NCBI GenBank assembly: GCA_016193465.1
Contig: JACPSE010000186.1
Coordinates: 6,593 to 70,592 of the forward strand
From: Deltaproteobacteria bacterium
GTDB taxonomy: Bacteria; Desulfobacterota; Binatia; UBA9968
Length of the DNA: 64,000 nucleotides
Direction of reading: 5' to 3'
Shown here: positions 4,212-50,999 of the stretch, piece after piece
Layout: the number at the start of each line of letters is the position of its first letter
How positions within the stretch are numbered: the stretch's first letter is position 1
The notes under the pieces: generated by a model
Database searches by the model: none
What the model was told of the DNA's origin: nothing
The model's input: only the letters and a program-made list of their open reading frames with translations
Program-made: the position numbers and the translations under genes

Positions 4212-4261
4212 CGGGAAGAGGGCCCGGCCTGCTTTCTTTAATAGCGGCTTCGACCTCTCGA

Positions 4262-4345
4262 ACGCACTGGCAAGGGGCTCGCTGGAGACAATTTTGAGTC
4301 CTCGGCAGTTGGCCTCAAAAGGAACTTTTTGCTATCATTTATTCC
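4262..4345. repeat. dispersed ~60-85 bp REP-like repeat, copy 1
   Basis: ctggcaaggggctcgctggagacaattttgagtcctcggcagttggcctcaaaagga is ~85% identical to 12530-12618. Confidence 0.6.
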
Positions 4346-4375: not shown

Positions 4376-5134
4376 ATGACGCATCATTCTTGCTCAAACG
4401 CGAGTCGTCTAGCTTTTCTCAGCATTGTTGGAATTGCTGCGCTGGCTCTTACGCTTGCGACTCTGCCCCGGGCCGTCTTCGGCCAGCCTTCAACCAACGC
4501 AGTTGGTATGAAGATCGGCATCATCGGCTCCGGCAATATAGGCGGCACGGTGGGAACGCTGTGGGTGAAAGCCGGCCATCAGGTGATGTTTTCCTCCCGG
4601 CATCCCGAGAACCTCAAATCGCTCGTCGACGGTCTCGGCCCTCTGGCTCGCGCCGGCACGGTACGGGAAGCCTTGACGTTTGGCGACGTCGTTCTCATTG
4701 CAGTTCCCTATGGTGCTTACCCGCAGATTGGCAAAGATTATGCGCGTGAGTTTACCGGCAAAGTTTTCCTCGATGCTGGAAACGCGGTTCTCAGGCGCGA
4801 TGGGGAGATCGCCAACGAAGCGCGTGAGAATGGCATCGGCATCACGTCGGCGAAGTATCTCGCGGGGGCGCGAATTGTCCGCGCGTTCAACACGATGAAC
4901 TTTCGCAGGCTCGCGAGCAACGCGAACCGGCCTGGAGCCCGCATGGCCATCCCCATTGCGGGCGATGACAAGGAGGCGCTCGCCGTGGCCCAGACGCTAG
5001 TCCGAAACGCCGGTTTCGATCCGGTCATCATCGGCGGGCTCGAAAGCGCCAAGTACTTTGCCCAAGGAGGGCCTTTGTACGGGCAAGATATCACGGCCCA
5101 GGAGATGCAGCTTCGTCTCCAGACGCTCCGGTGA
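4376..5134 (+). CDS. NADP oxidoreductase, coenzyme F420-dependent family (Rossmann MKIGIIGSGNIGG), with a possible N-terminal signal-like extension
   Basis: The MKIGIIGSGNIGGTVG dinucleotide-binding motif starts at 4508. The ORF opens at 4376 with an AAAGGAG SD and a hydrophobic leader, so the alternative start is 4508. Confidence 0.7.
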   Translation: MTHHSCSNASRLAFLSIVGIAALALTLATLPRAVFGQPSTNAVGMKIGIIGSGNIGGTVGTLWVKAGHQVMFSSRHPENLKSLVDGLGPLARAGTVREALTFGDVVLIAVPYGAYPQIGKDYAREFTGKVFLDAGNAVLRRDGEIANEARENGIGITSAKYLAGARIVRAFNTMNFRRLASNANRPGARMAIPIAGDDKEALAVAQTLVRNAGFDPVIIGGLESAKYFAQGGPLYGQDITAQEMQLRLQTLR

Positions 5135-6521: not shown

Positions 6522-7262
6522 ACTACGTGCCGTTTGTAGCAAAATATGATGTTCTAGGCATGGCGGAAAAGGGAATCATTCAGATTCCCACTGCGATGGT
6601 AGATCCAGACAACCGCAACGTTATTGCCGCGGGCAGCGCGCTCGACGCGGTTGCTTATAATCCCAACCTGCTGCGCCCCGAGCTTGTGCCCAAAATCTGG
6701 GAAGACCTTCTCAAACCAGAACTGAAAGGGAAAAAAGTTTGTCATGGATGTTGCCCCCGCCGCTGTTTTTGCTTTGACCCCCGCATGGGGACTGGAGAAG
6801 GTTCTCAGCTTCGCCCGCAAGCTTAGGGAACAGAGTCCCGTGTGGGCACGGGGACATACAAGGATCCTAACCAGCATTGCAGCGGGCGAGTATGCCATGC
6901 ACGGCGCTACCAACTATCACTCGGCGATGCGCCTGAAGGAAAAGAATCCGGCTAATCTGGGGGTTGCACTTGTTGAACCTGTTCCGACGCGACTCCATGA
7001 AGCTCAGGCGGTTCTGGGGACGGCCACAAACCCCCACACAGTTTTGTTGTGGCTCGAGCACATGGCGAGCCCTGAAGTTCAAAGACATCTAGATGAGGTG
7101 GAGCCTTTAAAAAGCTCTATCTATGCTCATGTTTCAGCACTGAGGAAAGCCGTCGAAGGGAAGAAAGTTTCAGTCGCTGCATGGAAATGGTTTTACCAGC
7201 GCGAAGACATTGAAAAACAGATAGCAAGCGCCTACGGGTTCCCAACAGCAGACGTGAAATAG
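6480..7262 (+). pseudogene. decayed paralog of the downstream ABC substrate-binding protein (N-terminally truncated, frameshifted)
   Basis: Two overlapping frames (6458..6826 and 6744..7262) align to residues ~110-340 of the intact SBP at 8691..9746 (EDLLKPELKGKKV~EDLLDPKWKGRIAV; HTVLLWLEHMASPEVQRHLDE~ATKLLLAWLLSPEGAEAVDK). There is no signal peptide, and the first part overlaps the isochorismatase gene 3' end. Confidence 0.55.
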
Positions 7263-7423
7263 AATACACCACTGGTAAGAATAACCGGGGAAATGGCTAT
7301 TCATACGTTTGGCTTCCCAGACGGAATAATTTGACCCCTCTTACTCCCAGCTCGTTTGACCCTTTCATACTCTAGGCCGCTGGCAAATGTCCATCCCTAT
7401 CTGGAAACCTCCCGCTAGTTGAC

Positions 7424-7453
7424 ATCATGCTACCTCATTGGATACTCTGCGCC
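7424..7453 (+). promoter_or_regulatory. sigma70-like promoter candidate TTGACA-N16-GATACT upstream of the ComA-like operon
   Basis: ttgacatcatgctacctcattggatact, followed by a ~150-nt leader before the ATG at 7603. Confidence 0.35.
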
Positions 7454-7602
7454 CTAATACGGCGACCCGGGGCCGGTTCATAGCCCAGGGATGCTGCTTG
7501 GGTTTATAAAGGCTCTCTGCCGCTTGGTCGAGGAGGCCACTTTCGAGTTCTCAGGGGCCGGGCTTAAAAAGCAAATTCTTATAGAACAGAAAGGAGCTCA
7601 AT

Positions 7603-8556
7603 ATGGAGAGACGGTTTTTAGATTTCGTGGAGCTGGCTGCCCGCAGCCGAAAGCCCCGGACTCAAGGCATTACCATCTTTGCCGAATACGGCACGATCAG
7701 CTGGACTAAGGAGATGCTGGACACATGGGGAGAGTATGTCGATGTTGTCAAATATACTCCGGCTCATCTGCATGCGCCGTGGCGCATCATTGAAGAAAAA
7801 GTAAAATTGTACCGAGATTACCAGGTCGGCGTCGCAGCCGATGATCCTATGTTTTCGATTGCCTACTATCAGGGAAAGGCCGACCAATTCCTACGTACCA
7901 TTCGGGATGTGGGCTTTACGCACGCTCAAATCGATACTCAGCACATCAATCTGGGCGCGCGGGCCAATCTCAAAAAACTCCAGGAGGATTGGCAAAAGTA
8001 CATGACGTTGGCGCTTGAGTTAGGCCTTAAGATCGACGGCGAGGTGGGCCAAAAGACTCCCGACGGCGATCTCGCCCGCTCCGGCAAAGGTATGTTGAAC
8101 ATCGATGCGGTCGTCGGGGAAATGAAGCGGCTCCTTAAAGCCGGCTGCGAGCACGTTTATCTGGAAAGCCGCGTGATCCGCGAGGTCATCGGCAACTACG
8201 GGGAAATAGAATCCGGAGCGGCGCAGATTCGAAGGATCGTAGACGCGGTGGGACAAACCAATGTGATCATCGAGATCAGCGGCCAATTGCCGTTTGACAC
8301 CAGGATGTGCCACCGTTTTTGGGCGGTGCGAAATTTCGGGCCGGAAGTCAACATGTCAGGCGGCGGACCGATAGAAGACGCGCGTTACGTTGAGGCGATC
8401 CGTCGCGGGAACACTTTTGTCAATGGTCCGAGTCGGTCGACCAGCAAGCTATGGATAAAATCGTTAGCCAAAAACGGCGGCAAAGCTGCCTCGGAATGGT
8501 GGAAGGAGGAATATCCAATAGATCCCGCGGTAGTAGCGGGCAGAACTCTGAATTGA
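7603..8556 (+). CDS. (2R)-phospho-3-sulfolactate synthase (ComA) family protein, with a C-terminal extension
   Basis: TIFAEYGTISW...YVDVVKY...DQFLRTIRDVGFTHAQID...LALELGLKIDGEVGQK...KAGCEHVYLESRVI resembles the ComA/PF02679 aldolase-type TIM barrel. There is an AAAGGAG SD. Confidence 0.6.
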   Translation: MERRFLDFVELAARSRKPRTQGITIFAEYGTISWTKEMLDTWGEYVDVVKYTPAHLHAPWRIIEEKVKLYRDYQVGVAADDPMFSIAYYQGKADQFLRTIRDVGFTHAQIDTQHINLGARANLKKLQEDWQKYMTLALELGLKIDGEVGQKTPDGDLARSGKGMLNIDAVVGEMKRLLKAGCEHVYLESRVIREVIGNYGEIESGAAQIRRIVDAVGQTNVIIEISGQLPFDTRMCHRFWAVRNFGPEVNMSGGGPIEDARYVEAIRRGNTFVNGPSRSTSKLWIKSLAKNGGKAASEWWKEEYPIDPAVVAGRTLN

Positions 8557-8690
8557 GGCTGTGACGCCGGCTCGCGAAAACGTTTCGCTTTCTGCAAGCG
8601 CAGAGGCAGTAAACGCAAAATCAGAACAGAGAATGAGAACGCTCGCAGCAGAGGCTTGTTTTGAATTCGCCAACTAATAAGGAGTGAGCG

Positions 8691-11616: not shown

Positions 11617-12517
11617 GGGTCAGGTCTTGCAATCCAATAGTGGATAAGATAGGCACAAGGCATGGCTCGGCCTCTGCGCTTGCAATATTCTGGGGCGCTC
11701 TATCATCTGACCTCCCGTGGCAATGCCCGCCAGAAGATCTTCTTAGATGACGATGACCGGGAGTTATTTATGAGCACCCTCTCTCATGTCATTTCCCGCC
11801 ACGGTTGGCTTTGTCATGCCTACTGCCTGATGGACAATCACTATCATTTGATAGTAGAGACCCCCCGGCCCAATCTATCTTTGGGGATGCGTCAGCTCAA
11901 CGGGATTTATACCCAGGCATTTAACCGTAGGCACCGTAGGGTGGGTCATCTGTTTCAGGGCAGGTATAAGGCCATCTTGGTGGAGAAGGAGGCCCATTTG
12001 TTAGAGCTTTGCCGCTACGTGGTGCTCAATCTGTCGCGGGTAGGGTCAAGGAGGGGGGTAGAGCAGTGGCGGTGGAGTAGTTATAGGGCCACGGCAGGTT
12101 TAGCCTCTGTGCCAGAGTTTTTAACTGTGGATTGGATCTTAGAGCAGTTTGGGCAGAAAAAGGGGCAGGCTCGGGCCCGCTACCGGGCCTTTGTCAGAGA
12201 GGGTTTGGAGAATCGGCTCTGGGAGAAGCTTAGGGGGCAGATCTATCTAGGGAGTGAGCAGTTTATAGAGAGGCATCAAAAGGCAGGGGAGGAGATAACG
12301 GAAGCACCGAAGGTGCAAAGGAGAGCGGTGAGGCCCGGCTTGAAGCATATCTTTAGCAGAGGCAGGGATAGAGGAATTGGGGTAGCGTACCTGGAGTATG
12401 GGTATCGGATGAGGGAGATTGCAGAATATCTTGGGGTTCACTATGCTACGGTGAGCCGCAGGCTGAGAGAGCTGGAGAAGAAGAGGAAAAGAAATGTATG
12501 ATTGCAAGACCTGACCC
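11617..12517 (+). mobile_element. compact element: IS200-like Y1 (HuH) transposase gene bounded by perfect 18-bp terminal inverted repeats
   Basis: GGGTCAGGTCTTGCAATC at 11617-11634 and its exact reverse complement at 12500-12517, the latter overlapping the transposase stop codon. Confidence 0.65.
11662..12501 (+). CDS. IS200-like Y1 tyrosine (HuH) transposase domain protein with a C-terminal HTH extension (RAYT-like)
   Basis: HuH motif NHYHLIVETP and catalytic Tyr in GHLFQGRYKAIL. The C-terminal REIAEYLGVHYATVSRRLRELE is an HTH. 279 aa. Confidence 0.75.
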   Translation: MARPLRLQYSGALYHLTSRGNARQKIFLDDDDRELFMSTLSHVISRHGWLCHAYCLMDNHYHLIVETPRPNLSLGMRQLNGIYTQAFNRRHRRVGHLFQGRYKAILVEKEAHLLELCRYVVLNLSRVGSRRGVEQWRWSSYRATAGLASVPEFLTVDWILEQFGQKKGQARARYRAFVREGLENRLWEKLRGQIYLGSEQFIERHQKAGEEITEAPKVQRRAVRPGLKHIFSRGRDRGIGVAYLEYGYRMREIAEYLGVHYATVSRRLRELEKKRKRNV

Positions 12518-12529
12518 TTTTATTGCCAC

Positions 12530-12618
12530 AAACTCGCTGGCAAAGGGCTCACTGAAGAAAATTTTGCGTCCTTGGCAGTTGGCCCCAAAAAGGAAATTCC
12601 TGTCACTGGTAAATTATC
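12530..12618. repeat. dispersed REP-like repeat, copy 2 (between the transposase element and the gshA 3' end)
   Basis: ctggcaaagggctcactgaagaaaattttgcgtccttggcagttggccccaaaaagga; see 4262-4345. Confidence 0.6.
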
Positions 12619-24295: not shown

Positions 24296-24341
24296 GGTTC
24301 AAAACAATAGGCAGCAGGCAATAGAAAATTCGTTTATCGCC

Positions 24342-25430
24342 TCACGCCTCTCGCCTTCCGCCTTCCGCCTTCAAAAGGGCATAACACTCATCAACGATTC
24401 TTTTTGCCGCCTCCGGTTTCCCCAGTTTTCGGGCCGCCATGCCTATGGCCTCAAGCCGCTTGCGATCCAGATAGAGGGCCCGAATCCGTTCAGCCAGTTT
24501 TTCCCCAGTTAATTCCCGGTCGAGAATCATCTCTGCCGCCCCTTGATCTTGGAGCACCTGGGCATGGAAGCGCTGGTGGTCATAGGCGGCGTAAGGATAG
24601 GGGACCAAAATCGCGGCTTTCCCAAAAACCGTCAGCTCCGAGACGGTGCCTGCGCCGGCGCGGCAAAGCACAAGGTCCGCCCGCGCATAGGCCTCATCCA
24701 TCCGCTCCACGAATGGCAGGACATCCGCCTCGAACGGAAGCGAGCCATAGGCTTCCTTGATCGCGGCAAAATCCGCCTGTCCAGTCTGGTGCATCACGCG
24801 CAGCCCTGTCGTCAAGTCTCTAAGGCTTTGCAGGGCCTCGATTACGCAGAGGTTGATTTTGTGCGCGCCCGCGCTGCCGCCGAAGACGAGCAGGGTGAAC
24901 TTTTCACTCTTCGCGATCTCGGGAAGGGCCTGCCAGCGCACTGGATTTCCCGCAGTTATGACCCTGGCGCGAGGAAAATAGGGAGCGCTTTCTTCATAAG
25001 AGGTGAAGACACGATCCGCCAGACAGCTCAAGATCCGATTGGTGAAACCGGGACGCAGATTCTGCTCCATAATGGCGCAGCGAATCCCCTTCGATTTGCC
25101 CGCAAGGAGAAAGGGGCCGGACGCATAACCTCCTAAACCGATGATGCAATCGGGCCGAAAGCGGGCGATGATCCCAAGGGAACGGAAAAAGCTAACGGGA
25201 ATACCGTAGAGGGCCTGCAGGGAACCACGCAGCCCTCTTCCCTTGAGGCCCCGGATCGGGATGGTCGCCAAGGGAAACCCTTCCCGGGGAAGGATCCGGC
25301 TTTCGATTCCCAGTTCGGTGCCGACGAACAGTATCTCCGTCATTCGATCTCTTCTCCGAAACTCACGCGCCACAGCCAGCCCGGGGAAGAGGTGGCCGCC
25401 TGTTCCCCCGCCGGCCATGATCAGCCGCAT
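24342..25430 (-). CDS. murG: UDP-GlcNAc--MurNAc-pentapeptide GlcNAc transferase
   Basis: MRLIMAGGGTGGHLFPGLAVA. The start is set at the internal Met (25430), 2 nt after the ftsW stop; the 25622 ORF extension is spurious. Confidence 0.9.
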   Translation of the reverse strand: MRLIMAGGGTGGHLFPGLAVAREFRRRDRMTEILFVGTELGIESRILPREGFPLATIPIRGLKGRGLRGSLQALYGIPVSFFRSLGIIARFRPDCIIGLGGYASGPFLLAGKSKGIRCAIMEQNLRPGFTNRILSCLADRVFTSYEESAPYFPRARVITAGNPVRWQALPEIAKSEKFTLLVFGGSAGAHKINLCVIEALQSLRDLTTGLRVMHQTGQADFAAIKEAYGSLPFEADVLPFVERMDEAYARADLVLCRAGAGTVSELTVFGKAAILVPYPYAAYDHQRFHAQVLQDQGAAEMILDRELTGEKLAERIRALYLDRKRLEAIGMAARKLGKPEAAKRIVDECYALLKAEGGRREA

Positions 25431-42675: not shown

Positions 42676-43581
42676 ATGCGCGGAACAACACCGAGACGTG
42701 AGCAGGGAATGGCCGACCCCGCGCTGGCCTCGATGGTCCGTGCAATGGGGTTGGAGAACGCGCGCCACTACACGGCCGCGACGCCCAAAATAAAGGCATA
42801 CCGCGATCGTTGGGCGGAGCTGGCGAAATATCGCGACGGTCCGGTCAACCCACGGCGGGTCGAAGTAACGGCTCCGGCGGAGATGGCAACGCAGATCAAA
42901 GCCAAGGCCTTCGAACTTGGAGCCGATATGGTGGGCATCTGCCGGTTAAAACCTCATATGATCGACCTCGGAGAAGATCTACCCCACGAGTACGTCATCG
43001 CCGCCTGCGTGGCGGAGGATTACGAGAAGGTGCTTCTCGGCGCCAACGCGGTGGAGGAAGAAGCGATGCGGGTCTACGCCACCTGCTCGGACATCGCCAC
43101 CGAGCTAGCAGCCCACATTCGCGACCTCGGCTACCCGGCGCTGGCTCATCACAACGGTGGCAGCGCCGTCCAGGCCATTCCGATTTTTTACCAGGTGGGC
43201 TTCGGGGAACTCGGGCGCCACGGCAGCCTGATCCACGAAAGATACGGCGCCAGTTTTCGCCCCGGCTTCGTCACCACGGATCTGCCCCTCGCCGAGGACC
43301 AGCCCCGCGAGTTCGGTGTCCAGGACTTCTGCATGCACTGCAACGCTTGCATGCGCAACTGCCCCGGCGACGCCATCCCAAAAGACCCCGTCATCACGGA
43401 CGGCATCAAGCGCTGGCTCATCGACCTGGAGAAATGCTACCCCTATTCGCGCCTGCGCGATGAATACTGCCACCTATGCGTCGACGTCTGCCCGTACAAC
43501 GTGAGGTCCCACCCGAAGACTTACAAGAGCTTTATGAAGCAGCGAAAGCAGTCCGGCTACAAAACGCCGAAATCCTGGTAA
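42676..43581 (+). CDS. 4Fe-4S dicluster iron-sulfur protein (reductive-dehalogenase/QueG-like C-terminal ferredoxin motifs)
   Basis: CMHCNACMRNCP and C..C..VCPY motifs. The start is possibly at M12. Confidence 0.55.
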   Translation: MRGTTPRREQGMADPALASMVRAMGLENARHYTAATPKIKAYRDRWAELAKYRDGPVNPRRVEVTAPAEMATQIKAKAFELGADMVGICRLKPHMIDLGEDLPHEYVIAACVAEDYEKVLLGANAVEEEAMRVYATCSDIATELAAHIRDLGYPALAHHNGGSAVQAIPIFYQVGFGELGRHGSLIHERYGASFRPGFVTTDLPLAEDQPREFGVQDFCMHCNACMRNCPGDAIPKDPVITDGIKRWLIDLEKCYPYSRLRDEYCHLCVDVCPYNVRSHPKTYKSFMKQRKQSGYKTPKSW

Positions 43582-43588
43582 CGATACG

Positions 43589-43789
43589 GTGGAAAAAATT
43601 TACGTCAACGAAATTCGCCCGAATGGCGAAGTCAGCACCGTGGGCCTCTTTTACTCTCGCGGGGAAGCGGAAGCGGTCGTGAAAAAGCTCCAGGATCTCC
43701 CGGAAAAGAGAGGGTGCAAATACGAAATCACCGCGACCGCGCCTGCGGCCCCAACAGCTCCGAGAGGATATAAATTTCCCCGGCAGTGA
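43589..43789 (+). CDS. hypothetical small protein (66 aa)
   Basis: Short ORF with a GTG start. No family recognised. Lies at the island edge. Confidence 0.25.
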   Translation: MEKIYVNEIRPNGEVSTVGLFYSRGEAEAVVKKLQDLPEKRGCKYEITATAPAAPTAPRGYKFPRQ

Positions 43790-43796
43790 AAAACGA

Positions 43797-43991
43797 GTGG
43801 CCACCGAAGGAGACGTTGAGGGCACCGCCCGCACGGGACGCAATCTGGGTTATTACATGGTCGTGTTAAAGGACTGTGCTGGCTCCAAAAATCCCGATCT
43901 GCACGACCTCGCTTTAAAATTAATGGAAAAGAGCCATTTCGATGTGGCGACCTCCAAAGAGGTCGCAGATATCTGGCAGCAGAAGGGTTAG
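43797..43991 (+). CDS. hypothetical small protein (64 aa)
   Basis: Short ORF immediately before the IS. No family recognised. Confidence 0.25.
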   Translation: MATEGDVEGTARTGRNLGYYMVVLKDCAGSKNPDLHDLALKLMEKSHFDVATSKEVADIWQQKG

Positions 43992-43994
43992 CCC

Positions 43995-45460
43995 TAATCC
44001 GACAATAATTTACCCATTCAGGCAGCCATTTTGAGCTTTTGGTCGATCATTCGAATCAGCGCTTGGGCAGGTTTAGCCACCGAAAAACGTAGAACGGAAT
44101 AGCCTTGAGGTCGTAGGAGCCGAGCCGGTTGATGGATTAGCTTGAAGCGAAGGGTCTTCAGACTCTGCAGGAGAAAACGGAAGGTCCTTTTACGCGACCT
44201 GGGCTTTTGGGTAGCTGTGGTCTGAATCTGAAAGCTCCTCAGGAGGTTATGTCCCAACACGGAGATTTGCTGCCAAGCCGAGTTGGCGCCGTAGTGATGG
44301 GTGGGCACGACATCGAAAGCCCATTCCCCCTTGAGCTCGGCGAAGGTCTTCTCCTGCGCTCCCCGTCCAGCCATGAAGTCCCACAAAGCGGCGGCAGAAA
44401 GATCCCTGTTGGTGGTCGCAGCCGAGTACTCAAAGTAGCCGTCATCGGGGTCAAACAGATCAAGCTGGTAGTTCTTCCTGCTTTTATGATGCACGGGTTT
44501 TCGGTAGATGACCACTCGCAAGATCTTTTCCCAAGCGGGAACCGTCAGAGACAGCTCGAAGAAGCCCATCCCTTCTGGGAGAGGATGCCAGCGGCTGCGC
44601 TCTCGGATCAAAGGCACCAGACCCAACCACTTGAAGAAGGGGACCTTGATCGCATAAGAAGCTCCTCTTCTCTCCAACAGACCGATCACCTCCCTCTGGA
44701 AGAAAGCCCCGTCCATGCGAAATTCCAAAGGCAAATGTCTTCCCAGGCGGATTCTCAAATCTTCGATCAGATCACGCAGGAAGGCCACCGCGCCTTTGGA
44801 GTCATGGACATTGCCGGGCCGATTCTTGACTCTCAGGATGTGTCCGGTCTGAGCCAGATGGGCGAGGATGGGATAGTAGGAGGAATCTTTGCGATGATGG
44901 GGATTGAACCCCCGAAAGGCCCAAGAGACACTGGCGCCTGTGGTGATGACGCTGCCGTCGATATCCAGGGTCAAACGAGCAAGCCCCTCTTTTTCAATGG
45001 CCTCACAAACCATTTGACTGTTAATCTCGACCAGGGCCTGAAGCGACTTAAGCGTGAAGCGCTTGAGCCAGCGGGCAACACTGCGATCCCGGGGCAGACG
45101 CATCAGACCGCAGAACCGCTTCACCAGAGGATCTTCACAGACATAGCCCAGATGTTCCAGCCTTCGGCCACCTACAAGAACAAGGACCAAGATCACCAAA
45201 ATCATGTCGATCGCCCGGTAGTCTCCTCCCAGACCATGAGCGGCAAACACCGACTGGACACGGCGATGAAGCTCGATGATCCGAAAGTATCGCCGGATCA
45301 ACTCCAGCCCTCCATAAGCTGTGATATCCTGGGAAGCAAATTCGATCTTGAGAAAGCTCTTGCACGGAGAGTAAAAATCGGCTCTACTGAGTCTCACTTG
45401 GAGTGGCCTCCTTGTAGGGTGATTGGGTCGGTGTTGCAACTGCTTTATCTCCTATAATGG
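43995..45460 (-). mobile_element. IS1380-family insertion sequence (approximate ends)
   Basis: Contains the 473-aa IS1380-like DDE transposase. Exact IRs not resolved. A ~30-bp segment matching the transposase 3' end recurs immediately upstream at 45455-45485. Confidence 0.6.
44018..45439 (-). CDS. IS1380-family DDE transposase
   Basis: ITAYGGLELIRRYF...DIDGSVITTGAS...RGFNPHHRKDSSYYPILAHLAQTGHILRVKNRPGNVHDSKG; ~470 aa. Confidence 0.75.
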   Translation of the reverse strand: MQHRPNHPTRRPLQVRLSRADFYSPCKSFLKIEFASQDITAYGGLELIRRYFRIIELHRRVQSVFAAHGLGGDYRAIDMILVILVLVLVGGRRLEHLGYVCEDPLVKRFCGLMRLPRDRSVARWLKRFTLKSLQALVEINSQMVCEAIEKEGLARLTLDIDGSVITTGASVSWAFRGFNPHHRKDSSYYPILAHLAQTGHILRVKNRPGNVHDSKGAVAFLRDLIEDLRIRLGRHLPLEFRMDGAFFQREVIGLLERRGASYAIKVPFFKWLGLVPLIRERSRWHPLPEGMGFFELSLTVPAWEKILRVVIYRKPVHHKSRKNYQLDLFDPDDGYFEYSAATTNRDLSAAALWDFMAGRGAQEKTFAELKGEWAFDVVPTHHYGANSAWQQISVLGHNLLRSFQIQTTATQKPRSRKRTFRFLLQSLKTLRFKLIHQPARLLRPQGYSVLRFSVAKPAQALIRMIDQKLKMAA

Positions 45461-45606
45461 CAGGCCATTTCAAGTTTTAAGGTCATCTGTAAAGAAAGTG
45501 GTGACGTGCTAAATTTCCTGTAAAAGTGAAGAGGCGTTGAGTATCCTCTCGGGTGAAACAAACCAAAGAGGCTCCGTGATAGCGGAGCCGGGAGGAGGTC
45601 AACGCC

Positions 45607-45885
45607 ATGAAGAGAATACCACCGAGTGTACAGATGAAGGAAGAGGTCACAGCGCTGCTTCGAGGGGAGCCGCCAGCAGGCGATGGTGGCCAGGGACCGA
45701 TGGAGGGTTTTGTGCGGGGCACGGCGCGCTACATGCTGCAAGTGGCTATTGAGGCGGAAGCCACCGCGTTTTTGGGCCGGGGGCACTACCGCCGAGGGGA
45801 TCGCATGCGCCTGGGCTGGCGCAACGGCTATGAGCCCAAAGGCTTGCAGACGGATGGGAGCGGGGGGGCGCATCTTTACCTTTGA
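45607..45885 (+). pseudogene. IS256-family (mutator-type) transposase, N-terminal ~90-aa fragment
   Basis: EEVTALLRGEP...MLQVAIEAEATAFLGRGHYRRGDRMRLGWRNGYEPKGLQTDGSG matches the IS256 Tnp N-terminus (FLGR..YER...GYRNGY). Truncated. A GGAGGAGG SD and an upstream hairpin are present. Confidence 0.6.
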
Positions 45886-45956
45886 CATTCGCTAAGGTGC
45901 CAATGAGAGAAAGCGTCAATGTCACAGTGAAAGATTTGACCCTCAAACCCTAGTTT

Positions 45957-46883
45957 TCAAGGATACTTAGTCTTTGCCTCAAGCGGAGTCAAAATTTCTC
46001 TCACGGAATGATCATCAGCGATAACAGTCACTTGTTGCGTATGAGTACTGTCATGAGCCAAATTTTTAATTTGGATCGCAGGATGTACAGACCTCCAGAA
46101 ATAATGGACGAATTCTTTGATCTGCTCACTGCTCATTCCTTTTCCTTGTGCCCGCAATATCTCTTCGGCTTGATCCCTCCATTTAAGTGAAACCTGATAG
46201 TGCGGCACGAACAAAACGTTCATAAATTCAATCATATCCCACAAAGGCTCATAATCAGAAAGTTTTTCATTGATATCCTTGGCAAACTGGATATGCTCCG
46301 GTGTGTCCAAAGCCGGTAAGCCAACTTCAAATATAGACTTATCTAAAACTCTCCTTGCCCCAAGCATCCAACCGTCATAAAAAATAAAATCAGGCTTTTT
46401 TGTAATAACCTTCCAACCTACTCTGTCTCCATCTCCATGCTCTGCTCCCTTATCGTATATTGGCACCTCAACTTCCATGCCGTCTTTCATAGTTCTTAGA
46501 TCAGTCAAGTTTTTCATTGCCAGAGGTATGTCATGGGTTACCCCCCTTCTTATAAACCTTGGGCCTTTTTCTCTTAATTTATTAAGTTCTTCGTGTGTAA
46601 CGTAATGGTCATCAATTGAGAGAGAAACACAAGTGTAACCTGAAAATTTAAGTAAGATTTCTAAAACCTCTCCTTGAGTTGTTTTGCCTGCGCCTTGGAT
46701 CGCTGAAATTCCAACAATCAAACCATCCAAATTTTTCTTCTGCTTTTTTTTATCAATTAATTTTTGTATGTATGGAAGGTAGTAATTCCTCAGGTCTTGT
46801 TTTAAATTGTCTTTTGATATTTCAGGACGCTTTTCAAATATTGGATTAAATATTGTTATATTTTTCTCTATATCAAAATTCAT
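45957..46883 (-). CDS. P-loop kinase of the D-glycerate 3-kinase (plant GLYK / yeast Tda10) family
   Basis: LIVGISAIQGAGKTTQ...SLSIDDHYVTHEE...YDKGAEHGDGDR...FYDGWMLG...SSEQIKEFVHYFWRSVHP parallels the GLYK family. The gene lies in a markedly AT-rich segment. Confidence 0.65.
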   Translation of the reverse strand: MNFDIEKNITIFNPIFEKRPEISKDNLKQDLRNYYLPYIQKLIDKKKQKKNLDGLIVGISAIQGAGKTTQGEVLEILLKFSGYTCVSLSIDDHYVTHEELNKLREKGPRFIRRGVTHDIPLAMKNLTDLRTMKDGMEVEVPIYDKGAEHGDGDRVGWKVITKKPDFIFYDGWMLGARRVLDKSIFEVGLPALDTPEHIQFAKDINEKLSDYEPLWDMIEFMNVLFVPHYQVSLKWRDQAEEILRAQGKGMSSEQIKEFVHYFWRSVHPAIQIKNLAHDSTHTQQVTVIADDHSVREILTPLEAKTKYP

Positions 46884-47003
46884 GATACATTAGATTGTAA
46901 CGCAACGGATTACCTATTCAATAACCCTCTGTTTTCAACAAACCTAATAACAGGTTTCGTCCTTGCCCTCGTGCCTGAGCAAAGGCTACCTTCCGAGAAA
47001 ACT

Positions 47004-47060
47004 CTAAAGAGAAAGATTGGTTGGATTAGCCAGAGGCGGACAGAGGGGACATTGGGAAGC
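47004..47060. repeat. 55-bp direct repeat R1a
   Basis: tctaaagagaaagattggttggattagccagaggcggacagaggggacattgggaagc; partner at 47967-48022. Confidence 0.6.
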
Positions 47061-47064
47061 TCGA

Positions 47065-47310
47065 CTACGCGGCCGCGAAATCGGGTGTGTCATGGAGAAC
47101 CATCAATTGATCGGGCCGAAGGAGTAAGATGGCAAACGCGCGGCCGGAGCGGTCGGCGAACTCAACCTCGCACGCGCCATCCTGGTAGGTCATCACAACA
47201 GTGCCGATCTGGCCACGGCGCAGAAGCAAAGTCTGACCGCCCTCGAAGTGCTTCGTTCGCACATCTTGCAGCAAGGCAACCACGTCATGCATTTTGAGTT
47301 CGGCGACCAT
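47065..47310 (-). CDS. DUF4926-like small protein
   Basis: 81 aa, MHDVVALLQDV...VEFAD motif pattern. Confidence 0.45.
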   Translation of the reverse strand: MVAELKMHDVVALLQDVRTKHFEGGQTLLLRRGQIGTVVMTYQDGACEVEFADRSGRAFAILLLRPDQLMVLHDTPDFAAA

Positions 47311-47360
47311 GGTCTAGAGTAAATAGCAAGTTAAAGAGCCAGGAGTCGATTACTCTTACT

Positions 47361-47510
47361 CAGTCCAGCACCCAAATTCCGCGTTCTCGAATCGCATCAT
47401 ACATCGCATCCGGAGCGAGGTCGGCGCCATTCGGCCACTGAATCGCGCCCAGCACGACTCGGACTTGAGCGAGGTCACACGCCAGGGAACGGCATGCCGT
47501 ATCGCCGGCT
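47361..47510 (-). pseudogene. DUF2442-like C-terminal remnant (no start codon), the expected partner of DUF4160
   Basis: The frame reads ...VRVVLGAIQWPNGADLAPDAMYDAIRERGIW*, resembling the DUF2442 C-terminus. No ATG, and the upstream frame is closed by TGA. Confidence 0.35.
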
Positions 47511-47771
47511 CTACTTCAGCGGTTCGATCGGTTTCGGGCTTTGCATTCGGCTGCATAGGTTCCAATCCTCCATCAGTTCATCGCGACGTTCCGCGGCCCA
47601 CTCCAATACTAACACCATTGCCCGGCCGGGCAAAGAGCCGCGGATTACCTGGAAGTCTCGCAGGTCAATCAGTGCTTCGTGCTCGGCGTACAGAGCATGG
47701 AAGTGCGGAGGCGCATGATCCCGCCAAAACATTTGGATCACGATGCCGTAAAAGACGCTGATCGTCGGCAT
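47511..47771 (-). CDS. DUF4160-family protein
   Basis: MPTISVFYGIVIQMFWRDHAPPHFHALYAEHEALIDL matches DUF4160. Confidence 0.65.
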   Translation of the reverse strand: MPTISVFYGIVIQMFWRDHAPPHFHALYAEHEALIDLRDFQVIRGSLPGRAMVLVLEWAAERRDELMEDWNLCSRMQSPKPIEPLK

Positions 47772-47966
47772 AAGAGTTCAAAACAAAACACCTGCTTGAC
47801 AGGATCTTTTTCAGGATACTACGCAGGGACTAAATTCGCCAACCCCGTTTAGACCCAGAATCCGCGGACACATAACGTAGGCCCGTCTCGGTTCGCTTCA
47901 TCCCTCACCTTTCGCCTATATCCTTTAACTCTGACGCCTCACGGCTCACGCCTTTCGCCTAATTTT

Positions 47967-48022
47967 ATAGAGAAAGATTGGTTGGATTAGCCCGAAGCGA
48001 AGGAGGGGATGTTCTGGGCTGC
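47967..48022. repeat. 55-bp direct repeat R1b
   Basis: tatagagaaagattggttggattagcccgaagcgaaggaggggatgttctgggctgc. Confidence 0.6.
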
Positions 48023-48092
48023 CGCTGATTTACCGGCCTAACGGCCGGAGCATCCTGCACTTGAGAGCCGGCTAAGCCGGTGCGATCCACGA

Positions 48093-48665
48093 ATGCCAAA
48101 ATCCAAGACTTGCCCCCGGATCCCCAAGATGTGTAACCCTACTTACCTACTACCCCCACAGGTATTACGGACAGGGGAAGGCTGTCGTGCACGGACTCCT
48201 GCCGAATCAGATGTATGGTTGCAGCAGCTAGCAGTAAGAGAGTGCTTAGAGAAAGCCAGGCACGCCGTATCGGAGGTAGTTCCTCCGGCTGATGAATTCG
48301 AAGCATGGCTACAGCGAAAGAAGTATGCATTTCCAGTCTGGAATCTAGGCGGCCTTAGGGACGCCGTATCAGAAGCGGTTACGCCGGCTGCTGAGCAGTT
48401 TGCGAAAGCGCTCGGAATTTACGGCGCCTTAGTCCTCACCAAAGAAATCGTCCGTGAACAGATGGGTTCTGCTATGACTGCATTTCATGTGGACCGGAGA
48501 GATGACCCTGACGAGAGTGAGTTTTCTACTATCTGCTTCACAATCACCACTCATGAGTCAGTAGACTCAATGCTGCGAAGAGACAATGATTTGCAAGATG
48601 TGCTCATTAGTCAAGTTCCACCAAATGCCTGTCTACACTTCTCATTTGCTTATCAATTCGAATAA
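48093..48665 (+). CDS. hypothetical protein with an internal ~19-aa tandem repeat
   Basis: 190-aa ORF. Internal repeat ARHAVSEVVPPADEFEAW / LRDAVSEAVTPAAEQFAKA. No family recognised. The start is uncertain (M1 or M13). Confidence 0.4.
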   Translation: MPKSKTCPRIPKMCNPTYLLPPQVLRTGEGCRARTPAESDVWLQQLAVRECLEKARHAVSEVVPPADEFEAWLQRKKYAFPVWNLGGLRDAVSEAVTPAAEQFAKALGIYGALVLTKEIVREQMGSAMTAFHVDRRDDPDESEFSTICFTITTHESVDSMLRRDNDLQDVLISQVPPNACLHFSFAYQFE

Positions 48666-48668
48666 CTA

Positions 48669-49085
48669 GTGGACCCAACCGACTTTCTTGTTGTCGCACA
48701 GAATCTCCATCCATCTGCGTCAGAAGCGGAAAGGCGCACGTCTATCAGCCGTTTGTACTATGCCTTATACAATCTGATCCACGAAGCGCTATCAAGCGTG
48801 GGCGTGTCGCTTAGCAGGAACGCCGAAGACCATAGGTTGCTTGTTTACTACCTTACACATTGCCGTCCTCCTGCGCCGGCGGCTGGTGTTGGGCTAGCAC
48901 TCAATAGTCTTCGAACAGCTCGCAATATTGCGGATTATGATATGAGAGTAACTGTTGATCCTAAGCAATCAGAATTCGCGTACAAACGGGCACTCGATGA
49001 CTTCGGAAAATTCAAAGCCTTGGATCAAAGGGCATTAGACAATCTTGCCAGATGCATCCAACATCTACCGCCGCTGAAGATTTAG
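48669..49085 (+). CDS. hypothetical alpha-helical protein (possible HEPN-like)
   Basis: 138 aa, 4 nt after the previous gene, so likely an operon. ISRLYYALYNLIHEAL and LRTARNIADYD are reminiscent of HEPN-domain helices but the match is not diagnostic. Confidence 0.4.
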   Translation: MDPTDFLVVAQNLHPSASEAERRTSISRLYYALYNLIHEALSSVGVSLSRNAEDHRLLVYYLTHCRPPAPAAGVGLALNSLRTARNIADYDMRVTVDPKQSEFAYKRALDDFGKFKALDQRALDNLARCIQHLPPLKI

Positions 49086-49173
49086 GGTCATGCCTGAGTA
49101 TTGATTTATTCTTCTCGCCGATTCGATTTCACCTGCAACGTGGGTCCAAAGCCGTTTGCCAACCGAACCACCT

Positions 49174-49220
49174 CAGCTTTGGAACGACAAGCCGTACCGT
49201 CATTCCAAGAAATCATTCAA
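49174..49220. repeat. ~48-bp direct repeat R2a
   Basis: cagctttggaacgacaagccgtaccgtcattccaagaaatcattcaa; partner at 50050-50098, ~90% identity. Confidence 0.6.
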
Positions 49221-49234
49221 CGGTTTGTAGTATT

Positions 49235-49561
49235 CTACTTTGGTTCCTTTTTGGTTTTTGAACGGGCAGCGGTCTTCGGTTCGACCGCCAATCGGAAACC
49301 GATGGCGTCGAGAACAGTGGACAAACTAAAAAACTCCGGATTCCCCTTCGTTGAGAGCATCCTGTAGAGATTTTCTCTGTTAAGGGAAGTAGACGCCGCG
49401 AGCTTGCCCATTCCACCATACGAATCGACGACATCCCTCAAGGCCAGAAGAAAGACCTCAGGCTCCCCGTCTTCCAGAGCCGCGTTTAAATACCCTACAG
49501 CTTCGGTCGGATCTTTGAGCGCCTCCAAAAGATTTCTTTGATAACTCCTACTTTTAGCCAT
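49235..49561 (-). CDS. addiction-module antidote protein (HigA-like HTH antitoxin, TIGR02684-type)
   Basis: NLLEALKDPTEAVGYLNAALEDGEPEVFLLALRDVVDSYGGMGKLA...ENLYRMLSTKGNPEFFSLSTVLDAIGFRL. Confidence 0.7.
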   Translation of the reverse strand: MAKSRSYQRNLLEALKDPTEAVGYLNAALEDGEPEVFLLALRDVVDSYGGMGKLAASTSLNRENLYRMLSTKGNPEFFSLSTVLDAIGFRLAVEPKTAARSKTKKEPK

Positions 49562-49570
49562 TGTGAACTC

Positions 49571-49897
49571 CTACTTTTTATAGTCCTCCCAATAGTCGAT
49601 AGCTCTCCTTATATCCTCAGCTTGTGAACTTTTATCTCCGCCGCAAAGCAAAATAACCAACTTCATCCCCACCTCGCCGAAATAAACACGATAACCGGGT
49701 CCGTAATCGATTTTGAGTTCCAGGACGCCACCACCGACCGGCTCACAGTTGCCCAAGTTTCCCAATCGGATGCGAGCGATCCTCGCACGAACTATATCTC
49801 TGGCTCGTTGGTCCCGGAGCGAATCCATCCAATCGTCAAAAGGACAACTGCCATCAGAGCGAACGTAGTTCTCAACCTGTTTCGCTGAAACTTCCAT
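49571..49897 (-). CDS. addiction-module killer protein (RelE/ParE-superfamily toxin, TIGR02683-type)
   Basis: 108 aa, 9 nt upstream of the antidote gene on the same strand. VRARIARIRLGNLGNCEPVGGGVLELKIDYGPGYRVYF matches the killer-protein family. Confidence 0.7.
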   Translation of the reverse strand: MEVSAKQVENYVRSDGSCPFDDWMDSLRDQRARDIVRARIARIRLGNLGNCEPVGGGVLELKIDYGPGYRVYFGEVGMKLVILLCGGDKSSQAEDIRRAIDYWEDYKK

Positions 49898-50049
49898 TGG
49901 CCGTATTGTAGTTTAAAAGCTACAGGTTGTCAAGGGCAAAATCATGCGCAAAACGATGTAGCGAAACGGAGAGAAATCCTGGCGGGAGTCGTGGAGTCTT
50001 TGAATTTTGCGCTACGTCGATAGGGAAAATCAGCCTGCCCTTACCAGCT

Positions 50050-50098
50050 CAAGCTTTGGGACGACAAGCCCTACGGTCATTCCGGGAAATCATTCAAA
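50050..50098. repeat. ~48-bp direct repeat R2b
   Basis: caagctttgggacgacaagccctacggtcattccgggaaatcattcaaag. Confidence 0.6.
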
Positions 50099-50219
50099 GA
50101 GAACCAGGAGCACTCCGTATCACCGGGATTTACAAGAGGAGCGTTTTCGAGTTATCTTCGTCTGGCTTCGCGAAGTCGGTAGAATAGTGTTCACGTCGTC
50201 ACGCCTTTACGGGGGCGGA

Positions 50220-50474
50220 ATGCGCCTAACGAGAGAAACCTACGGCGGCTATGTGATCCAGGCAGCGTCCTTTGATGGAGCGCTGCGCCATCCTACGCGG
50301 AACAAAAAGTGGGGAGAATGGTATCCCGCCTACCGGATCTATAGAGAAGGGAGACCCGGTAAGCTGGTTCATCAAGAAACGCTGGACCATCCTTATCAGA
50401 GCCAAGATGAAGCAAATAGAAGCGCTTTCAGAGCCGCTAAATCGTGGATTGATAACCGAAACAAAGGAGCGTAA
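50220..50474 (+). CDS. hypothetical small protein (~85 aa)
   Basis: ATG preceded by a GGGGGCGGA SD-like sequence. It is the tail of the longer 50007 ORF, whose 5' part is repeat-derived. Confidence 0.3.
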   Translation: MRLTRETYGGYVIQAASFDGALRHPTRNKKWGEWYPAYRIYREGRPGKLVHQETLDHPYQSQDEANRSAFRAAKSWIDNRNKGA

Positions 50475-50495
50475 TCGGTAAGGCCGTCTATGTGC

Positions 50496-50531
50496 CACAT
50501 TTCCGGAATTCCGGAAACGCGGAAATGTCGG
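50496..50531. promoter_or_regulatory. compound palindrome containing a perfect 16-bp TTCCGGAATTCCGGAA
   Basis: cacatttccggaattccggaaacgcggaaatgtcg lies ~45 bp upstream of arfB; candidate operator. Confidence 0.3.
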
Positions 50532-50573
50532 TATTCCTCGTTCCGGAGGTGTAGTTATGCTAAACTTTAAGCC

Positions 50574-50999
50574 ATGGCTCTCAACATAGTTTCACCTAAA
50601 AAAGAGAAATTCCTTTTAGAGCGTATGCAGGCCTTGGGTGTTCGGGAGCAGGACATCGAGGAACAATTTGTCCGCTCTTCGGGAGCCGGCGGTCAGAAGG
50701 TCAACAAGGCGTCTACCTGTGTTGTGCTCCGCCATCGGCCCACGGGCATTCGAGTGAAGTGCCAAAGAGAACGCTCGCAGGCCCTCAATCGTTTTTTGGC
50801 GCGAAGAATCCTGCTGGACAAAATCGAGGCGAAGCTCAGAGGAGCCGAGTCCGCGGAACAGCAAGAGATTGCCAGGATTCGACGGCAGAAAAGAAAGCGC
50901 TCACGGCGCGCCAAGCTTAAGCTCCTCGCGGATAAGCGCCACCAGGGGAAAAAGAAATCCCTCCGAAACGCCGTGCGACCTGACCATTACGACGACTGA
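50574..50999 (+). CDS. arfB: alternative ribosome-rescue factor / peptidyl-tRNA hydrolase ArfB (GGQ protein)
   Basis: [14 protein letters not shown] motif and a basic C-terminal tail; 141 aa. Confidence 0.85.

Follow-up and report, generated by a model that had tools for sequence, protein, structure and literature searches.

An accessory, addiction-module-rich interval upstream of arfB in a Binatia-like genome is a mosaic and not a single island

We analyzed a stretch of 64,000 nucleotides (nt) from a Deltaproteobacteria bacterium of the Binatia (contig JACPSE010000186.1 of assembly GCA_016193465.1), hereafter called the window, and within it the interval that lies between a gene for a 4Fe-4S dicluster protein and arfB. 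An earlier annotation made from the letters alone (the sequence-only reading) had described this interval as an accessory island of about 7 kb that begins at position 43589 and has the content of a defence/addiction island. We found that the interval is genuinely variable but of an ordinary kind, that it is accessory DNA with many addiction modules in a Binatia-like genome, and that it is not a single island. It contains insertion sequence (IS) debris, one kinase gene derived from low-GC DNA, and four small, mostly decayed modules of toxin-antitoxin (TA) type; the part to the right of the core DNA is a patchwork in which at least five pieces are independent of one another. The region upstream of arfB is, in our reading, a recombination hot spot or synteny break, and neither one mobile element nor one functional system, and we give this reading a probability of about 60%. 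The locus is of an ordinary kind, here from an uncommon lineage. Comparison with related loci established what the repeats of the interval are and where they came from, which sites are empty or filled in relatives, that the modules have decayed, and that the kinase gene has a foreign origin. The features are listed below in their order along the window, with lengths of proteins in amino acids (aa) and with ORF standing for open reading frame.

42676-43581, gene for a 301-aa 4Fe-4S dicluster protein found in Binatia-like genomes
43589-43789, plus strand, orf66, 66 aa, no Pfam or NCBIfam match
43797-43991, plus strand, isochorismatase remnant, last 64 codons (PF00857 positions 121-174 of 175)
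44018-45439, minus strand, IS1380-family transposase (NF033539, 225.6 bits, positions 1-416 of 419; PF13701)
45607-45885, plus strand, N-terminal fragment of an IS256/Mutator transposase (PF00872 positions 23-72 of 379, 19.4 bits, cutoff 21)
45957-46883, minus strand, GLYK-type D-glycerate 3-kinase (PDB 7xpc GLYK, E = 5.5e-30)
46971-47063, plus strand, repeat A1, last ~60 nt of top6A (frameshifted) and 34 nt of native downstream sequence
47065-47310, minus strand, DUF4926 gene (PF16277, E = 3e-21)
47311-47333, minus strand, DUF6883 remnant, last ~20 nt
47356-47565, minus strand, pseudogene of a DUF2442 (DhiA-type) antitoxin, with a frameshift and an internal deletion
47511-47771, minus strand, DUF4160 (DhiT-like) toxin, intact ORF (PF13711 positions 1-65 of 65, E = 2e-21)
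47896-47960, CT-rich motif with CCTTTCGCCT repeats, 85% identical to an intergenic stretch of locus L082 (14407-14473) and similar to window 24338-24363
47961-48013, plus strand, repeat A2, last ~22 nt of top6A and ~30 nt of downstream sequence
48093-48665, plus strand, orf190, 5'-truncated middle gene of a three-gene operon, no family
48669-49085, plus strand, orf138, HEPN/UPF0332-like four-helix protein, no Pfam match
49088-49253, plus strand, repeat B1, full copy of the intergenic sequence U (nhmmer E = 1e-40)
49235-49561, minus strand, HI1420-type antidote (TIGR02684, 58.3 bits, cutoff 53.7; PF21716)
49571-49897, minus strand, HI1419-type RelE/ParE toxin (TIGR02683, 122.8 bits, cutoff 62.85, positions 6-95 of 95)
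50027-50097, plus strand, repeat B2, partial copy of U, profile positions 62-135 (nhmmer E = 1.5e-14)
50220-50474, plus strand, DUF6566 gene, 84 aa (PF20204, 27.1 bits, cutoff 26.7)
50495-50528, palindrome ACATTTCCGGAATTCCGGAAACGCGGAAATGT, similar to repetitive extragenic palindromes (REP-like), at the start of the conserved region upstream of arfB
50574-50999, plus strand, arfB (PF00472, E = 1.3e-23), followed by livF, livG and livM

Two repeat pairs mark off three small-gene blocks in the interval, as the sequence-only reading had proposed. Pair A (47000-47038 and 47961-47999) and pair B (49167-49220 and 50043-50097) each show 87% identity between their copies; neither sequence recurs elsewhere in the window, and the expectation from shuffled sequence was 0 matches. 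The same reading had taken the repeats for the boundaries of elements, and this part had to be abandoned, because both pairs are duplicated native host sequence. A search with arfB gave 80 metagenome loci with 71-91% aa identity, onto which the genes and DNA of the window were mapped. Locus L072 provided the reference order, which is top6B, top6A, a spacer (S), a small minus-strand ORF, the intergenic sequence U, gene X and arfB, with the A and U sequences in single copy. Repeat A1 was 87% identical to positions 8551-8642 of this locus, where the 368-aa top6A gene ends (...KLKEKDWLD, stop), and repeat A2 was 89% identical to its positions 8587-8632 and 87% identical to A1. A contig of the Logan assemblies, L144, has the same A2 segment, but there the first 5 nt are native top6A (CTCAA). 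In pair A, the 3' end of the gene for topoisomerase VI subunit A is present twice, each time incompletely; neither top6A nor top6B is present elsewhere in the window. Topoisomerase VI is uncommon in bacteria, and we observed genes for both of its subunits beside the arfB locus in L072 (5461-8608), L095 (3804-6942) and L080 (2518-5662).

Repeat B1 matched positions 8942-9118 of L072/L095 with 81-91% identity, and B2 was 87% identical to B1 over 55 nt. In relatives, U is intergenic, placed between the small minus-strand ORF and X, near arfB, and both members of pair B are partial copies of it. In L146, a 37-aa gene call that might have corresponded to the small basic ORF of L072 falls within U and was discarded as probably spurious. 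At its right end, B1 meets the 3' end of the antidote gene at 3-4 nt of microhomology (CTTT). Gene X, which encodes an F420-type NADP oxidoreductase, adjoins arfB in relatives, and a homologue with 78% identity is found at 4376-5134 of the window. Among the other fetched loci, the A and B repeats were found only in linkage with arfB or top6A, with the addition of one U copy beside a restriction-modification pair in L068.

The relatives showed the same sites both empty and filled. L095 equals L072 plus a 688-bp DUF6883/DUF4926 module that sits 34 nt after top6A and is flanked by the 7-bp sequence AAGCTCG; in the window, the left junction of the DUF4926 gene, between GGGAAGCTCG and ACTACGCGG, is identical to that of this locus. 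In addition, the last ~75 nt of top6A recur in L095 in front of an NT5C gene, in a slightly diverged form with two aa changes relative to the functional copy. Further variants of the arrangement at the top6A end were observed in L086 and L080. The RelE/antidote module lies inside U, with U partly duplicated, in L091, L092, L081 and the window, and this site is unoccupied in L072 and L095. L083 has an 84-aa DUF6566 orthologue between two partial copies of U, and the DUF6566 gene was variably present upstream of arfB. Second partial anchor copies were thus found in L095, L086, L091 and L083, and in the window the four copies (A1, A2, B1 and B2) stand in direct orientation to the left of the modules. 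The junctions vary in position between genomes, the second A copy beginning at -75 in L095 and at -22 in the window and U being broken at four different positions, and they show microhomology of 3-7 nt where the parental sequence exists (CTTT in the window and AAGCTCG in L095). Strain variants of the locus were present in the same samples (L144 and L146).

The variability was also evident from gene content. In the 48 loci with enough sequence upstream of arfB, 168 ORFs fell into 121 clusters, and TA-type genes were encoded less than 3 kb upstream of arfB in at least seven of them (L086, L090, L091, L092, L095, L110 and L138), where they belonged to RelE/antidote, DUF6883/DUF4926, PemK/RHH, MazE and PIN types. 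The sequence-only reading had named presence or absence in relatives as a check, with the same gene order conserved at native composition in distant relatives as the finding that would refute it; none of the 4Fe-4S-linked and arfB-linked loci compared had the gene order of the interval, and the accessory character was not refuted in this way. Toward arfB, similarity to relatives resumes at 50483-50556, and the REP-like palindrome that marks this border recurs at 93-96% identity in intergenic positions of L092 (three copies), L070, L082, L083 and L086.

On the left side, the border of the variable DNA required correction. A search with the 4Fe-4S protein gave 63 loci, mostly from metagenome-assembled genomes (MAGs) labelled Candidatus Binatia or 'Deltaproteobacteria', and in 58 of them the gene that follows the 4Fe-4S gene was orf66, with 53-82% aa identity. 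Because of this co-conservation, orf66 is evidently a core gene that lies outside the variable region, and since the two genes are nearly always adjacent and in this order, orf66 is likely to encode a functional partner of the 4Fe-4S protein in Binatia-like genomes. The closest of these loci, L001 (86% nucleotide identity), has orf66 followed by a full 211-aa isochorismatase gene (2015-2650) and then by a ParE/Phd pair. Window 43589-43787 matched L001 1801-2002, and window 43795-43991 matched L001 2454-2650 at 86%; relative to L001, about 450 bp with the 5' part of the isochorismatase gene are deleted between 43789 and 43797. The first 400 nt of the proposed island, with the two small ORFs that had been counted among its contents, are therefore not accessory, and the variable DNA begins at about 43992, not at 43589. 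Of the accessory island of about 7 kb, the variable and accessory character stood, and the unity and the start position did not, with orf66 being core and the isochorismatase remnant shared with L001.

The deviant composition described before was confirmed. The GC content was 50.3% for 43992-50480 and 55.7% for the remaining window, the tetranucleotide distance reached z values of 3 to 7 over 44.6-50.6 kb, the median ORF was 143 aa inside the interval and 318 aa outside, and accepted genes occupied about 72% of it. The GC content of the individual pieces spanned 37.6% to 63%, suggesting that they have several origins. The lowest value belongs to the kinase gene and is about 7 standard deviations below that of equal-sized windows elsewhere in the stretch. 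An identical protein, named glycerate kinase, was found in an NCBI 'Deltaproteobacteria bacterium' MAG (72.4-kb contig), and the other homologues were at most 77% identical (67-77% for the next-best ones), those with names coming from Patescibacteria / Candidatus Daviesbacteria. In the closest context, L153, the GC content is 40% and the kinase gene is compositionally native. With such homologues and such composition, the gene looks like a transfer from a low-GC, Patescibacteria-like donor into a Binatia-like genome, an apparent glycerate kinase transfer that may be a useful side result.

Family scans recovered nearly all of the gene inventory listed before, including the last small ORF, which is the DUF6566 gene, although several entries turned out to be remnants. 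The IS1380 element has a transposase with a full-length DDE ORF; inverted-repeat scans and local alignment of the flanks (43960-44040 against 45430-45960) detected no terminal inverted repeats, and a complete element with such ends and a target-site duplication was not recognized. The IS256 fragment was recovered only as a weak, below-cutoff match to the N-terminal part of Transposase_mut. In the block described as DUF4926/DUF2442/DUF4160, the DUF4926 and DUF4160 ORFs are present, and DUF2442 survives only as a frameshifted and internally deleted remnant. The DUF4926 protein is 93% identical to that of L095, where its gene is paired with a DUF6883 gene (7227-7559); the similarity of the window to L095 6885-7246 ends six codons into the latter. 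Intact DUF6883/DUF4926 pairs are present in L095, L086 and L148, whereas in the window the DUF6883 gene is gone apart from ~20 nt and its place is occupied by the DhiT/DhiA-remnant pair. DUF6883 has been classed as the RNase toxin BECR-Tox3, with DUF4926 as its immunity partner (bioRxiv 10.64898/2026.08.28.747851). The DUF4926 gene of the window is accordingly annotated here as a predicted orphan immunity/antitoxin gene left without its DUF6883 (BECR-Tox3) toxin.

The DhiTA pair (DUF4160/DUF2442), in which the toxin gene precedes that of the antitoxin, has been validated by experiment as a TA system (PMC8198452). No intact DhiTA pair was found in the interval: the toxin ORF is whole, and the antitoxin is broken, with its N-terminal part in one frame and its C-terminal 'VVLGAIQWPNGADLAPDAMYDAIRERGIWVLD' in another, so that PF10387 matched positions 48-71 of 72 only. 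The DUF4160 protein scored 74 bits with the DhiT model NF048015, under the cutoff of 100. The CT-rich CCTTTCGCCT motif between this block and A2 was seen in several intergenic regions. The RelE/ParE toxin and its antidote, which the sequence-only reading had also recognized, both scored above the cutoffs of their family models. They are encoded on the same minus strand with a 9-nt gap, and in L091 and L092 their homologues are also upstream of arfB (81-91% aa identity for the toxin and 95-97% for the antidote). Because both genes match the family models end to end, this pair looks like the only intact module of the interval. In L091 (606-1274) and L092 (7-675), the antidote ORF has 222 aa, about 115 of them an extra C-terminal part relative to the 108-aa copy of the window.

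In their family matches and two-gene layout, the RelE/ParE-HI1419/HI1420, DhiTA and DUF6883/DUF4926 genes resemble type II TA systems, and in the RelE/antidote and DhiT/DhiA pairs, the toxin gene comes first, as in described systems. The interval differs from such systems in that only the RelE/antidote pair seems to be intact, the DhiA gene being a pseudogene and the DUF6883 toxin absent.

The pair of ORFs that had been described as an uncharacterized two-gene operon is present, but it is a 5'-truncated remnant of a three-gene operon. Only three non-identical homologues of orf190 were found; they have 207-210 aa, and their conserved N-terminal ~45 aa are missing from the copy of the window. 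In L149 and L147, a third gene lies upstream of the orf190 homologue. These longer homologues and the additional gene indicate the truncation. In relatives (L149 1-1488 and L147 4613-6420), the operon comprises gene A (~215-231 aa), gene B with a conserved C-terminal part of ~100 aa, and gene C, which is HEPN-like. For orf190, no Pfam, NCBIfam or PADLOC match was obtained, and the AlphaFold2 (AF2) model (predicted local distance difference test score, pLDDT, of 54) gave no meaningful or nucleotidyltransferase fold match. The family profile of orf138, on the other hand, matched PDB 9xbd, a 'HEPN domain-containing protein', with E = 2.5e-5. Its AF2 model had a pLDDT of 92.8 and its best fold matches were HEPN proteins (2hsb and MntA-HepT toxins), with weak Foldseek E-values (>= 0.04); we therefore consider its predicted fold, confidently modelled, to be HEPN-like. 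The family has an invariant R82xxR85NxxD89Y90 signature (RNxxDY) with no His, and the canonical Rx4-6H motif was not found in it. It numbers 7781 cluster representatives at E <= 1e-3, yet it is almost invisible to Pfam.

The modelled four-helix fold, with HepT toxins among the best structural matches, is a likeness to HEPN-MNT (MntA-HepT) systems; the operon differs from them in the RNxxDY motif replacing Rx4-6H, in a partner that is no nucleotidyltransferase, and in having three genes, two of them without a family. The three-gene operon could be an undescribed TA or defence module, and a widespread HEPN-like family that is poorly detected by Pfam and placed in an unannotated operon is possibly a useful side result. 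Two nearly identical small GC hairpins, CCGGCCTAACGGCCGG (48043-48058) and GCCGGCTAAGCCGGT (48069-48083), were observed between A2 and orf190.

In our reading, the interval has three layers. The first is the core DNA on the left, in which the 4Fe-4S gene and orf66 are followed by the remaining 3' part of the isochorismatase gene. The second is a junction occupied by the IS1380 transposase gene, the IS256 fragment and the imported GLYK kinase gene, and the third comprises the four small, self-contained TA-type modules, each with a partial native anchor on its left (A1, A2, B1 and B2). From the anatomy of the junctions, and from it only, we infer how this array may have been built and in what order. 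DNA of a related strain that has another module at this locus may have recombined homologously in the conserved anchor at one end, the opposite end being joined illegitimately where a few bases of microhomology existed; the new module would be added, and the old one would be displaced and carry along an incomplete anchor copy. Top6A, X and several toxin or antitoxin partners would subsequently have been lost by deletion and IS-associated rearrangement, and these events would also have brought the array next to the isochorismatase stump. What is found today would be the residue: a RelE/ParE-antidote pair that is apparently intact, an immunity gene left without its toxin, a toxin gene whose antitoxin is broken, and the shortened HEPN-like operon. 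The heterogeneity of the modules, the anchors on their left, the orphan immunity gene, and the variable junctions with microhomology fit best with a sequential addition of modules, by illegitimate recombination anchored in homology, between strain variants of the locus.

A sequential-displacement model has been proposed for the orphan immunity arrays of the Vibrio type VI secretion system (T6SS) and for rhs loci (PMC5361080). The interval resembles these arrays in having an upstream anchor with heterogeneous small modules downstream, the older ones kept with a partial anchor, in the presence of an orphan immunity gene without its toxin (here DUF4926), and in a heterogeneity of content that simple duplication does not explain. 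It differs in its anchors, which come from the end of the housekeeping gene top6A or from an intergenic sequence and not from the constant region of a toxin gene, in its modules, which are cytoplasmic pairs of TA type and lie on either strand, and in that the anchor gene has since been lost from the locus.

Several points weigh against our reading. The left junction at 43992-45912, which includes the isochorismatase stump, the IS1380 gene, the IS256 fragment and the approach to the kinase gene, was found in no independent assembly, and since this segment crosses repeats, a mis-join there is possible. Two seemingly independent junctions in U, that of L091/L092 and that of B2 in the window, coincide exactly between ATCATTCAA and C, which could point to a site-specific process. 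Furthermore, the evidence for a putative donor allele, in which top6A would be directly followed by orf190, consists of 5 nt at the end of one short contig.

The explanation closest to the sequence-only reading is a single genomic or defence island, acquired horizontally and integrated site-specifically between the 4Fe-4S gene and arfB. Like such islands, the interval is variable in relatives, deviates in GC and tetranucleotide composition over 44.6-50.6 kb, contains IS elements and is enriched in TA genes, and its gene order is missing from relatives. However, family profile scans found no integrase or recombinase among the ORFs of the interval, there is no tRNA gene anywhere in the window, and no direct repeats were found at the outer ends, the sole repeats being the internal pairs, which differ from each other and both come from native host DNA. 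The pieces of the interval have GC contents too far apart for one origin, they occur separately in different relatives, and the leftmost 400 nt consist of core DNA and of DNA that the closest relative also has. The defence label was not sustained either: addiction-type TA modules and IS debris dominate the content, and PADLOC models run on ten proteins of the interval found no defence system and gave a single sub-threshold match, to HEPN_IX, with E = 0.005. We regard a single island as largely refuted and as the least credible of the explanations considered.

An assembly artefact, either a contig that is chimeric across IS repeats or an AT-rich kinase gene mis-joined from a co-occurring Patescibacteria genome, is hardly more credible. 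The Patescibacteria-like GC content and homologues of the kinase gene would fit it, as would the IS sequences that adjoin this gene and the independent Logan contigs that end at 45913-45922, as expected of a repeat edge; exact-sequence look-ups of the 4Fe-4S protein, orf66 and the IS1380 transposase on the left, and of ArfB and RelE, gave no matches. Nevertheless, three independent assemblies, each of another run, contain 45913-47182, which spans the kinase-A1-DUF4926 junction, with 100% identity, and 47969-49579 was also 100% identical in Logan contig(s) from other runs, indicating that these two parts are not assembly artefacts; with only 77% identity between the kinase and its best non-self homologue, read-through from a contaminating genome that has been sampled does not account for this gene.

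Site-specific recombination was considered in two forms. An integron-like cassette array without integrase (a cluster of attC sites lacking integrases, CALIN), or another site-specific cassette system with U and A as recombination sites, would account for blocks that are small, self-contained, often of TA type and separated by repeats, as in integron arrays. The inverse-core consensus of integrons is RYYYAAC, and the 7-mer ATTCAAC at the coinciding U breaks fits it, the only resemblance to an attC site that was found; moreover, a U copy abuts the restriction-modification pair of L068. This is opposed by the properties of the repeats themselves. The consensus fold of eight U copies was weak (-7.6 kcal/mol), with almost no covariation and no attC-like imperfect hairpin, a permissive Rfam scan of 43.5-50.7 kb gave a chance miRNA match only and no other structured element was found, and A is the coding 3' end of top6A and unrelated to U. 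The other U and A junctions are at different positions, the genes are on both strands, with the minus-strand ones preceded by more than 100 nt of non-coding sequence and perhaps carrying their own promoters, and no integrase gene is present in the interval. We judge this form very unlikely. Both integron arrays and genomic or defence islands thus differ from the interval, with its repeats of host sequence, in their integrase, tRNA target or attC-like structure, or recognized defence system.

Decay of larger integrative elements, inserted at the 3' end of top6A and in U with attL/attR-like duplications and with TA modules surviving by their resistance to deletion, is unlikely too, less so than the foregoing explanations. 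Direct repeats of 45-145 nt derived from a gene end are typical of integrase-mediated insertion into gene ends, and repeats of this kind are what we observed; the modules are of TA type and decayed, and the second top6A end of L095, with its two aa changes, is as expected of a displaced or element-borne copy. Against this, no larger element or integrase was found at these sites among ~150 loci, the first insert of L095, which is the cleanest of the filled sites, has only 688 bp, a 7-bp repeat and a cargo of just two genes, and the repeat boundaries vary between genomes. A broader proposal, which we hold to be doubtful and somewhat less probable than such decay, is that TA, immunity and restriction-modification modules of Binatia spread as integrase-independent or trans-mobilized cassettes that target the top6A end and a core of U ending in ATCATTCAAC, duplicating 50-145 nt of the target, and that, separately, the HEPN-like RNxxDY operon is an undescribed TA or defence system. 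If true, this would be a cassette-accretion system distinct from integrons.

On the reading that we prefer, a recombination hot spot upstream of arfB, the main value of the analysis is a correction, by which an apparent '7-kb defence/addiction island' becomes a layered recombination scar with duplicated host repeats. It also offers a worked example, in the little-studied Binatia, of TA modules that pile up and decay at a synteny break, and current understanding is not overturned by it.

Elsewhere in the window, an intergenic repeat of 60-70 nt was observed at 4250-4325 and 12520-12595 with 85% identity. The former copy is just upstream of the X-homologue gene (4376-5134), and the latter separates a transposase-like gene (11662-12501) from an oppositely oriented glutamate-cysteine-ligase-like gene. 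This repeat includes a TGGCA...TCGC stretch that is reminiscent of a sigma-54 promoter.

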